A program made the position numbers and the translations under genes. This document shows, one piece after another, positions 1-1,099 of a stretch of DNA of 1,099 bases (the stretch's first letter is position 1; each line of letters begins with the position of its first letter). This DNA comes from Escherichia coli (lineage in GTDB: Bacteria > Pseudomonadota > Gammaproteobacteria > Enterobacterales > Enterobacteriaceae). Location of the stretch: assembly GCF_003334255.1 (NCBI RefSeq), contig NZ_QOWU01000175.1, one strand, 5' to 3'. The notes under the pieces are model-generated. The model searched no databases. It worked only from the letters and a program-made list of their open reading frames with translations, and was not told where the DNA came from.

Positions 1-68
1 CCACCACTCATCACCAGAAGCCCGGCCAGAGAAGATGACAGGAGTGTCATTGTAAACTTTTTACTCAT
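1..68 (-). CDS. 5' end of a gene continuing beyond the window start; N-terminus resembles a signal peptide or membrane anchor (product unknown)
   Basis: ATG at 68..66 (minus) preceded by CAGGAT with an 8-nt spacer; translation [23 protein letters not shown] has a basic n-region (KK) followed by a hydrophobic stretch; codons are typical enterobacterial (CTG, GCC, GGG). Only 22 complete codons are visible, so the call is weak. Confidence 0.4.
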   Translation of the reverse strand, partial: [22 protein letters not shown]

Positions 69-76
69 TATGGATA

Positions 77-80
77 TCCT
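77..80 (-). promoter_or_regulatory. Shine-Dalgarno-like AGGA for the gene starting at 68
   Basis: Minus strand reads CAGGATATCCATA-ATG; AGGA at 80..77 lies 8 nt from the ATG at 68..66. Confidence 0.35.
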
Positions 81-103
81 GTTAAATTATCTGTATACAA
101 ATC

Positions 104-144
104 AGCCGTAACACACTCATAAAAAAGTCTGATTAATTACGGCT
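104..144. repeat. Perfect 8-bp inverted repeat AGCCGTAA (104-111) / TTACGGCT (137-144) with 25-bp spacer
   Basis: Read directly from the sequence; lies 36-76 bp upstream of the minus-strand ATG at 68. Function (operator or RNA stem) unknown. Confidence 0.5.
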
Positions 145-164
145 TTATTCAGGATATTCCGAAA

Positions 165-194
165 ATAAATTTAAAAATTAATTTTATAAATTTA
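165..194. repeat. 9-bp direct repeats ATAAATTTA (165-173 and 186-194) flanking a perfect 12-bp A/T palindrome AAAATTAATTTT (174-185)
   Basis: Read directly from the sequence; repeat spacing is 21 bp (about two helical turns) in a stretch that is almost pure A/T. Confidence 0.4.
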
Positions 195-258
195 GGATTT
201 GTCTTACATTATTCTGGGCATACCTGCTCACGCATACGACCACACCGCCGGAACAGAT

Positions 259-345
259 ATCAGAAAAAACTTACCCCAGTCAGACTTGCTGTTTCACATC
301 TGCTTACACTGTAATTTGTGAACAAAATTACAACATCAGAAAAAA
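259..345. repeat. Exact 11-bp direct repeat ATCAGAAAAAA at 259-269 and 335-345
   Basis: Read directly from the sequence; on the minus strand both copies read TTTTTTCTGAT, and the 335-345 copy follows the hairpin at 346-361. Confidence 0.4.
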
Positions 346-361
346 TTAACTATTCAGTTAA
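340..361 (-). terminator. Weak terminator-like hairpin plus T-run downstream of the 427..1008 CDS
   Basis: On the minus strand, TTAACT-GAAT-AGTTAA (plus 346-361) is followed immediately by TTTTTT (plus 340-345). The stem is only 6 bp with a single G:C pair, so predicted stability is low. Confidence 0.2.
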
Positions 362-426
362 CATGAAATATTTACAGGAGGAATAGTTCATGAGGGAAAG
401 AAATGTTTCCCCCATATTTTTATCTG

Positions 427-1008
427 TTATTCCTGTGCCCAGCCAACCCTGTATGCCAGTATCTCATCCGCACTGGTCAGCTTTTCCAGCTCTTTCTTCA
501 TGGTGCGCTGCCGGACGTGGATTTCCATCCCTTTGGTAAACATCGCCTGCTCTGCAGCAGCACTCAGAGCAATCAGTGTTTCAGCGTCCATCGGTACGTC
601 ATTATTGTCCGCATCCGTCCAGAAAAACTGCTCCGGCAGTTTCCCCGCTTTCGCTGCCGCCACCGACGGCTCAAGACGCGTCTGCGTTGACTTCCCGTAG
701 TCCCATTTACGCCCATTGTGCTCAAACGTGTAGTTCGCCGCTTCCATCGCATTACGCCAGGCGTTGATCCCGGCGGTTTTGAGTTCTCTGGCTTTTTCCG
801 GGCTGATGGATGGCTGTACATATTCTGCAATTTCACCGGCCTCTCCTCTCAGACAAGCGGCATAAATATCCCGCCCGTATGCTTCGGTATCGCTGGCTGT
901 TGCAGTGAAAGGAACCGCCTGCTCAATGTGCTCAAACTTCACCATGCAATTGACAGCAGTGTGCTCTTTATCTGCCCATTGCGGATTGCTTATTTTTTCC
1001 ACATTCAT
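427..1008 (-). CDS. Phage tail-associated protein, tail-fibre-assembly/chaperone-type (possibly DUF4376-like C-terminal region); 193 aa from the SD-supported start
   Basis: Only long ORF with protein-like composition (six-frame track 427..1083, stop TAA at 427-429). Minus strand reads ACAGGAG-ATG-AAC-ATG: AGGAG at 1015-1019, ATG at 1012-1014 (0-nt spacer) and ATG at 1006-1008 (6-nt spacer), so 1008 is the best-supported start, giving MNVEKISNPQWADKEH... A further in-frame ATG at 1081-1083 overlaps an upstream stop (TAATG) and is an alternative start. Family call rests on remembered similarity of the C-terminal stretch (FFWTDADNNDVPMDAETLIALSAAAEQAMF...EILAYRVGW) to small prophage tail-fibre-adjacent proteins; no search was run. 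Confidence 0.78.
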   Translation of the reverse strand: MNVEKISNPQWADKEHTAVNCMVKFEHIEQAVPFTATASDTEAYGRDIYAACLRGEAGEIAEYVQPSISPEKARELKTAGINAWRNAMEAANYTFEHNGRKWDYGKSTQTRLEPSVAAAKAGKLPEQFFWTDADNNDVPMDAETLIALSAAAEQAMFTKGMEIHVRQRTMKKELEKLTSADEILAYRVGWAQE

Positions 1009-1014
1009 GTTCAT

Positions 1015-1019
1015 CTCCT
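1015..1019 (-). promoter_or_regulatory. Shine-Dalgarno (AGGAG) for the 427..1008 CDS
   Basis: Plus-strand CTCCT at 1015-1019 is AGGAG on the minus strand, 6 nt upstream of the ATG at 1008..1006. Confidence 0.55.
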
Positions 1020-1099
1020 GTCTGTCAGTATGCGCGCTGGAACAGCCCGATGCCTTCATTGTCATTTGTCGACGTAATTTCATTACACACCATCCATGA

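Follow-up and report, generated by a model that had tools for sequence, protein, structure and literature searches.

The boundary between a side tail-fibre gene and a DUF4376 gene in an Escherichia coli lambdoid prophage

The locus and the 3' end of the fibre gene

The stretch of DNA analysed here (hereafter the window) comprises 1,099 nucleotides (nt) of an Escherichia coli genome (contig NZ_QOWU01000175.1), has all of its features on the minus strand, and includes a gene for a DUF4376-domain protein, a predicted tail-fibre chaperone, whose start is the subject of this study. By megablast, the whole 1099 nt are matched at 99.8% identity in several complete E. coli chromosomes, and 1037 nt are 100% identical to the Enterobacteria phages P-EibC and P-EibE of strain ECOR-9 (AF151674, AF151676); on sequence grounds, the window is part of an E. 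coli lambdoid prophage. The wider context was taken from locus L001 (RefSeq record NZ_AP022815, 99.8% identical to the window), where the gene order is gpJ tail tip, Ail/Lom, tail fibre, DUF4376 protein and YadA-like family protein (eib), the last three carrying the RefSeq names “prophage tail fiber N-terminal domain-containing protein”, “DUF4376 domain-containing protein” and “YadA-like family protein”.

Positions 1006-1099 very probably hold the junction of two separate late prophage genes, the second of which starts at ATG 1008 (start codons are named by their highest coordinate). Both this gene and its start are already known, as an ordinary boundary annotated in RefSeq: the coding sequences (CDSs) of the fibre (4639-6075) and of the DUF4376 protein (6092-6673) in L001 correspond to a stop at window position 1025 and a start at 1008. 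The features around the junction are as follows:

1025..1099, minus strand: 3' end of the side tail-fibre gene (24 codons and TGA), from RefSeq CDS 4639-6075 of L001 and a conserved tip motif
1009..1024, minus strand: 16-nt spacer between the fibre stop and the start of the predicted chaperone, containing the Shine-Dalgarno (SD) sequence; a layout common to relatives with LFQR-type fibres
1015..1019, minus strand: SD sequence AGGAG, 6 nt before ATG 1008, from its duplex energy with 16S rRNA and a purine-rich SD at the same place in distant relatives
1006..1008, minus strand: ATG, most likely the initiation codon of the DUF4376 gene (RefSeq start, N-terminal column of homologues, sole productive ATG in allele L014)
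427..1008, minus strand: DUF4376 gene, 193 amino acids (aa) plus a TAA stop at 429-427 (= orf-191C/E), from Pfam, PHROG 1141, synteny and AlphaFold
1012..1014, minus strand: alternative in-frame ATG, used in GenBank AAF63034.1 and AAF63044.1 (195 aa), abutting the SD with 0-nt spacing
1081..1085, minus strand: TAATG pentamer, its TAA and ATG both off-frame in the fibre coding sequence (fibre frame, shuffle count, frame lengths)

The upstream gene lies in a frame that an earlier note on this DNA had left unread. This third frame encodes SWMVCNEITSTNDNEGIGLFQRAY-TGA, ending ...GIGLFQRAY-TGA with the stop at 1027-1025, and on the sequence evidence it is the real upstream gene, a side tail fibre, of which the window carries the last 75 nt. 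In L001 the fibre is a continuous open reading frame (ORF) of 478 aa with collagen-like Gly-X-Y repeats, of which residues 1-469 match PHROG 366 (“tail fiber protein”), and the other two frames are short: that ending in MDGV-TAA is open for only 13 codons, and that of the DUF4376 gene meets a TGA 46 codons before ATG 1008, or 16 codons past the window edge. Because close relatives are nearly invariant here (only 2 substitutions in the last 75 nt of the fibre gene, on which a codon-position test has no power), distant fibre tips were compared at the protein level. The tips of L004-L007, from fibres 22-31% identical to that of the window, keep an invariant Trp (the W of SWMV, 1096-1094) and end L-(F/C)-Q-R-(I/A)-x-stop, and the ending ...LFQR(I/A)x-stop recurs across many distinct junctions in a census of 58 related IMG/VR loci with 34 distinct junctions.

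The earlier note had described a TAATG at 1085-1081, with MDGV-TAA in a second frame, as an overlap with an upstream gene and hence a translational-coupling junction. The letters are indeed present. However, the true upstream gene uses a different frame, with its stop at 1027-1025, and both triplets of the pentamer are off-frame inside the conserved C-terminal tip of the fibre. The window contains five copies of TAATG where 3.0 +/- 1.9 would be expected, a number reached by 35 of 200 shuffled sequences, and since this frequency is at chance level the pentamer carries no weight alone; the eibC/eibE ATG at 68-66 likewise has TAATG in front of it, so that the pentamer is evidently common. Compared with the TAATG/ATGA junctions of coupled operons, the window has the pentamer but neither triplet in a translated frame, and its two genes are separated by 16 nt that include an SD for the second gene, where theirs overlap at stop and start. 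More generally, coupling should be read from a TAATG in raw sequence only where both of its triplets belong to translated frames.

The start of the DUF4376 gene

Five ATGs (1083, 1065, 1059, 1014 and 1008) and a GTG at 1002 are in frame at the beginning of the DUF4376 gene; the earlier note had correctly placed 1083, 1014 and 1008 in one frame ahead of the protein body, and had missed 1065, 1059 and the GTG. The RefSeq start, ATG 1008, yields a 193-aa product beginning (M)NVEKISNPQWADK, which is identical to WP_114322251.1 of L001, and the start in GenBank AF151674, ATG 1014, yields 195 aa beginning MNMNVEK.... The GenBank genes orf-191C and orf-191E (AAF63034.1, AAF63044.1) consist of the same DNA over the 1037 nt and have the same neighbours (fibre upstream, eib downstream), so that they differ from the RefSeq gene in the annotated start only, with no biological difference. 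From ATG 1083, the product would have 218 aa, with a 25-aa N-terminal extension, MKLRRQMTMKASGCSSAHTDR.

The N-termini of homologues point to ATG 1008. Among 28 aligned homologues (54-98% identity), 27 begin at the column of M(1008) or at most two residues away (MNVEKIS, MNIETIT, MKIEKII, MKVDKIT and the like), the exception being the singleton P0002 (933-nt contig), whose sequence includes MKLRRQ. This segment is not conserved, nor is there in-frame conservation upstream of 1083. In a collection of ~15 billion predicted proteins, 107 contigs encode the 193-aa product and 6 the 195-aa one, and the exact 218-aa product is absent. In L004 and L005 (59% identity), L006 (71%) and the indel variant L003, a stop directly precedes the ATG in frame, which makes an N-terminal extension impossible in these four loci. 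Two whole-protein comparisons give the same picture: residues 1-192 of the 193 align with positions 4-193 of the 194-position profile PHROG 1141, and an AlphaFold model built with 43 sequences (mean predicted local distance difference test score, pLDDT, 93.3) is confident, and has its first beta-strand, from residue 3.

The ribosome-binding signal is likewise best placed for ATG 1008, for which the SD duplex with the 3' end of 16S rRNA is the most favourable of the candidate starts (-7.4 kcal/mol, spacing 5-6 nt). ATG 1014 directly adjoins the AGGAG, ATGs 1065 and 1059 have no SD (~+0.4 kcal/mol), and ATG 1083 is preceded by a bulged SD-like GGAUGG (-6.8 kcal/mol). The earlier note had favoured an independent start at 1008 from the 6-nt spacing to AGGAG, and this proposal is borne out by RefSeq, the homologue alignment, PHROG 1141 and AlphaFold alike.

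The start region (window 992-1014) is polymorphic, as seen also in L003, L009, L013, L014, L017-L019 and L021. Four alleles occur in 18 close loci, with either ATGAAC or ATGAC after the SD, combined with a run of six or seven A residues (A6 or A7). The ATGAATG at 1008-1002 consists of two overlapping ATGs in different frames and is followed by the slippage-prone A6 run at ~997-992, and each allele encodes the full-length protein through whichever ATG is in frame, as MNVEKIS or MWKKIS; the protein clusters P0001 and P0005 have 857 and 236 members. Every allele has a productive ATG 5-10 nt past AGGAG. The equivalent of ATG 1014 is in frame in 10 of the 18 loci and unproductive (stop or wrong frame) in the other 8, that of ATG 1008 is the only productive ATG in allele L014, and in all three indel alleles the frame of ATGs 1083, 1065 and 1059 no longer leads into the protein body, having 0-5 open codons and no start in frame further upstream. 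It is tempting to speculate that the dual-frame start was selected as a buffer or switch against homopolymer slippage in a fibre-chaperone gene; we regard this as improbable, and the four-allele pattern is most simply explained as neutral polymorphism.

From the fibre stop onward, the junction reads TGA (1027-1025), CAGAC, AGGAG, ATGAAC and ATG (1008). All LFQR-type fibres in the census share the order of stop, a gap of 9-20 nt with an SD, and ATG, and a purine-rich SD stands at the same place in distant relatives, so on sequence evidence the conserved feature of the junction is the gene's own SD. In other subfamilies the gap is 41 or 68 nt long and the SD strong, and dependence on upstream termination is therefore not a trait of the family. 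Only two of the 58 loci (L089 and L091) have a genuine TAATG overlap between fibre and chaperone genes. The 16-nt gap in the window is geometrically compatible with short-gap termination-reinitiation, in which stop and start lie within ~20 nt, and ribosomes ending 16 nt upstream could plausibly contribute in this way.

These observations are consistent with a simple mechanism. The side tail-fibre gene ends at 1027-1025, and the DUF4376 gene would begin, after the 16-nt spacer with its AGGAG, at ATG 1008, where ribosomes most likely initiate by ordinary SD pairing, perhaps with some help from those terminating on the fibre just upstream. ATGs 1083, 1065 and 1059 and the TAATG would then be functionless, as parts of non-coding frames inside the fibre coding sequence.

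Three other explanations have to be weighed against a start at ATG 1008. The nearest is initiation at ATG 1014 (195 aa, MNMNVEK...). No ATG stands closer behind the fibre stop, the codon is in frame in those 10 of the 18 close loci that have the window-type allele, and the original depositors chose it (AAF63034.1, AAF63044.1). However, with 0-nt spacing to AGGAG, with a stop or the wrong frame behind its equivalent in 8 close loci that still encode the protein, with no counterpart in the more distant aligned homologues, and with RefSeq preferring 1008, we consider it unlikely as the actual start; on sequence evidence it would be a minor alternative, possible in the window-type allele only. A coupled start at ATG 1083, reached through TAATG from a gene ending MDGV-TAA, can call on an existing pentamer and open frame, on the weak SD-like GGAUGG, and on L089 and L091, distant family members in which the fibre and chaperone genes genuinely overlap at TAATG. 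Yet the supposed upstream gene has only 13 codons and the real one, in a different frame, ends at 1025; moreover, the 25-aa extension occurs in a single singleton homologue, the 218-aa product is missing from the 15-billion-protein collection, the frame is interrupted in the indel alleles and shut by stops in relatives, and TAATG is at chance frequency. This makes the coupled start highly improbable, and effectively refuted.

The earlier note had also observed that the frame of the DUF4376 gene is open to the window edge (HGWCV-MKLRRQ...), which is confirmed, and had suggested that the protein could be the C-terminal part of a longer fibre. Such a body, joined to the fibre through an uninterrupted ORF or a programmed +1 frameshift close to the 3' end of the fibre gene, would resemble an intramolecular chaperone. 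Its frame does run through the 3' end of the fibre gene, with 46 open codons ahead of 1008, intramolecular chaperone domains exist in other fibres, and the work on Alteromonas phages notes structural similarity between DUF4376 chaperones and such intramolecular domains (PMC10579305). Extending the sequence rightward in L001 nonetheless reveals no fusion: a TGA closes the frame 16 codons past the window edge, and the fibre is encoded whole in a different frame, with a conserved C-terminus and a stop codon of its own. As the overlap frame is in addition closed (0 codons) in L003, L004, L005 and L006, where a stop precedes the ATG, and as no gene caller gives a fused product, we find a fusion barely conceivable. 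Both the coupling and the fusion readings arose because the wrong frames were read at the 3' end of the fibre gene.

Several points do weigh against two separate genes with a start at ATG 1008, or against parts of that account. ATGs 1014 and 1008 are both in frame in the window's own allele, separated by just two extra residues (MN), GenBank chose the former, and the sequence alone makes the latter only the more probable of the two. Given its weak SD-like GGAUGG, ATG 1083 may allow low-level initiation. Within the clade, substitution patterns cannot tell the frames apart at the near-invariant 3' end of the fibre gene. Folding of the RNA of positions 960-1099 (minus strand) gave no structure hiding the SD (z = +0.83), so that structure-mediated coupling is unsupported. 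Finally, the chaperone role of the E. coli members is a prediction by analogy, and no solved structure matches them.

On balance, the sequence evidence makes initiation at ATG 1008 most likely, and the older GenBank start at 1014 is probably two codons too long. This matters little beyond annotation hygiene, although the exact N-terminus is relevant to co-expressing E. coli prophage fibres for the retargeting of phages or tailocins, where the N-terminal domain of ~70 aa appears to be tip-specific.

The predicted fibre chaperone and its two modules

The protein matches Pfam DUF4376 (PF14301) at E = 3.4e-19, over residues 98-206 of the 218-aa ORF or 73-181 of the 193-aa protein, and PHROG 1141 over its full length at E = 2e-79. 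Its gene is directly downstream of, and co-oriented with, the fibre gene, as are the equivalents in L003-L007 and in the 58 IMG/VR loci. Based on this synteny, on domain co-variation and on published DUF4376 chaperones, the 193-aa protein is most probably an intermolecular tail-fibre chaperone. In Alteromonas phage V22, the DUF4376 protein gp27 is essential for a functional receptor-binding fibre, and the downstream DUF4376 protein of Campylobacter CJIE1 is likewise required; in Alteromonas phage A5 the DUF4376 chaperone is dispensable, functional fibres being obtained with or without it. All three proteins are encoded immediately downstream of a fibre gene and were tested by fibre co-expression (PMC7289586, PMC7882524, PMC10579305). 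The predicted chaperone of the window shares with these its C-terminal DUF4376 domain, its size class (~190-240 aa) and its position on the same strand right after a receptor-binding fibre gene, but differs in N-terminal domain and fibre type, the fibre here being a collagen-like lambdoid side tail fibre with an LFQR-type tip, and its role is predicted where theirs was tested.

Across the census, the type of N-terminal domain co-varies with the type of fibre tip:

LFQR-type fibre tip: chaperone N-terminus MN(V/I)E...
fibre tip ...EYF(S/P)L: chaperone N-terminus MHIKNF... (PHROG 136, “tail fiber assembly protein”)
fibre tip ...QWVTVEHE: chaperone N-terminus MNLKNL...
fibre tip ...NIAFNYIVRLA: chaperone N-terminus MTFTM... 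(L089 and L091, 2126-2887)

This suggests an N-terminal domain of ~70 aa that appears matched to the fibre tip, and a C-terminal DUF4376 domain that would be common to many fibre types; the DUF4376 half is indeed ~80% identical across tip types. The N-terminal domain of L089 and L091 and their fibre tip ...NIAFNYIVRLA presumably resemble those of lambda Tfa and Stf. With the classical Tfa/Caudo_TAP proteins (lambda Tfa, Mu U, P2 G; PF02413), the window protein shares its genomic position and presumably its role, and relatives join Tfa-like N-terminal domains to the same DUF4376 domain (P0064 matches PHROG 136 at E = 7e-30). Unlike those proteins, it has no Caudo_TAP (PF02413) match, and even P0064 matches that family only weakly (E = 0.02). 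No NCBIfam model matched the protein, a PDB sequence search with the family profile returned no match at E <= 1, and Foldseek found nothing in the PDB at E <= 0.001.

The two halves of the gene also differ in their distribution. Megablast matches break at query ~332-335 (window ~765-768), close to the start of the DUF4376 domain, and the C-terminal half with eib was found in 153 genomes, the N-terminal half with the fibre tip in only 29, a pattern suggestive of recombination where the protein's two modules meet, at ~765-768. At the other end of the module, the same 220-nt junction (fibre tip and chaperone N-terminus) follows fibre genes whose RefSeq names vary from genome to genome (“tail-collar fiber domain”, “prophage tail fiber N-terminal domain”, “phage tail protein”), at up to 8 matching places per genome. 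The tip and chaperone thus appear, from these matches, to be shuffled as a module among different fibre shafts.

An unusual arrangement was seen in PhiR12_1, PhiR12_2, PhiR12_2_star and PhiR12_4, where the gene matches at one place only from about codon 29 on. In PhiR12_2 (L011, 1202-2082), the only one of these loci inspected, a gene for an “ATP-binding transposition helper protein” stands in the opposite orientation after the first 41 codons, and the fibre tip lies ~3 kb from the rest of the chaperone gene, which suggests, from the gene layout, that an insertion element splits the gene. The hosts given in the PhiR12 records are E. coli C or K-12 MG1655, and the chaperone, perhaps with the side fibre, may be dispensable on these strains.

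The region downstream

Two further features complete the window, downstream of the predicted chaperone gene:

69..426, minus strand: AT-rich spacer between the chaperone gene and eib (sequence; depositor annotation)
1..68, minus strand: 5' end of eibC/eibE, encoding a YadA-like immunoglobulin-binding protein (RefSeq and GenBank annotation)

A literature search for “ORF-191” and “eibA” found nothing relevant, the original description of the Eib prophages being outside its scope. An Rfam scan of the window returned only two sub-threshold matches (E ~0.7-0.8, well under the gathering scores), and a promoter and terminator scan gave counts close to the shuffle expectation and was uninformative for the junction. 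The spacer itself, 358 nt long, has 32% G+C against 53% in the chaperone gene, and resembles a regulatory region for the eib cargo gene. Upstream of eibC/eibE it contains an AT-only stem-loop at ~166-194, annotated by the depositors, and immediately past the chaperone stop a GGGAAA...TTTCCC hairpin is found at 394-411.
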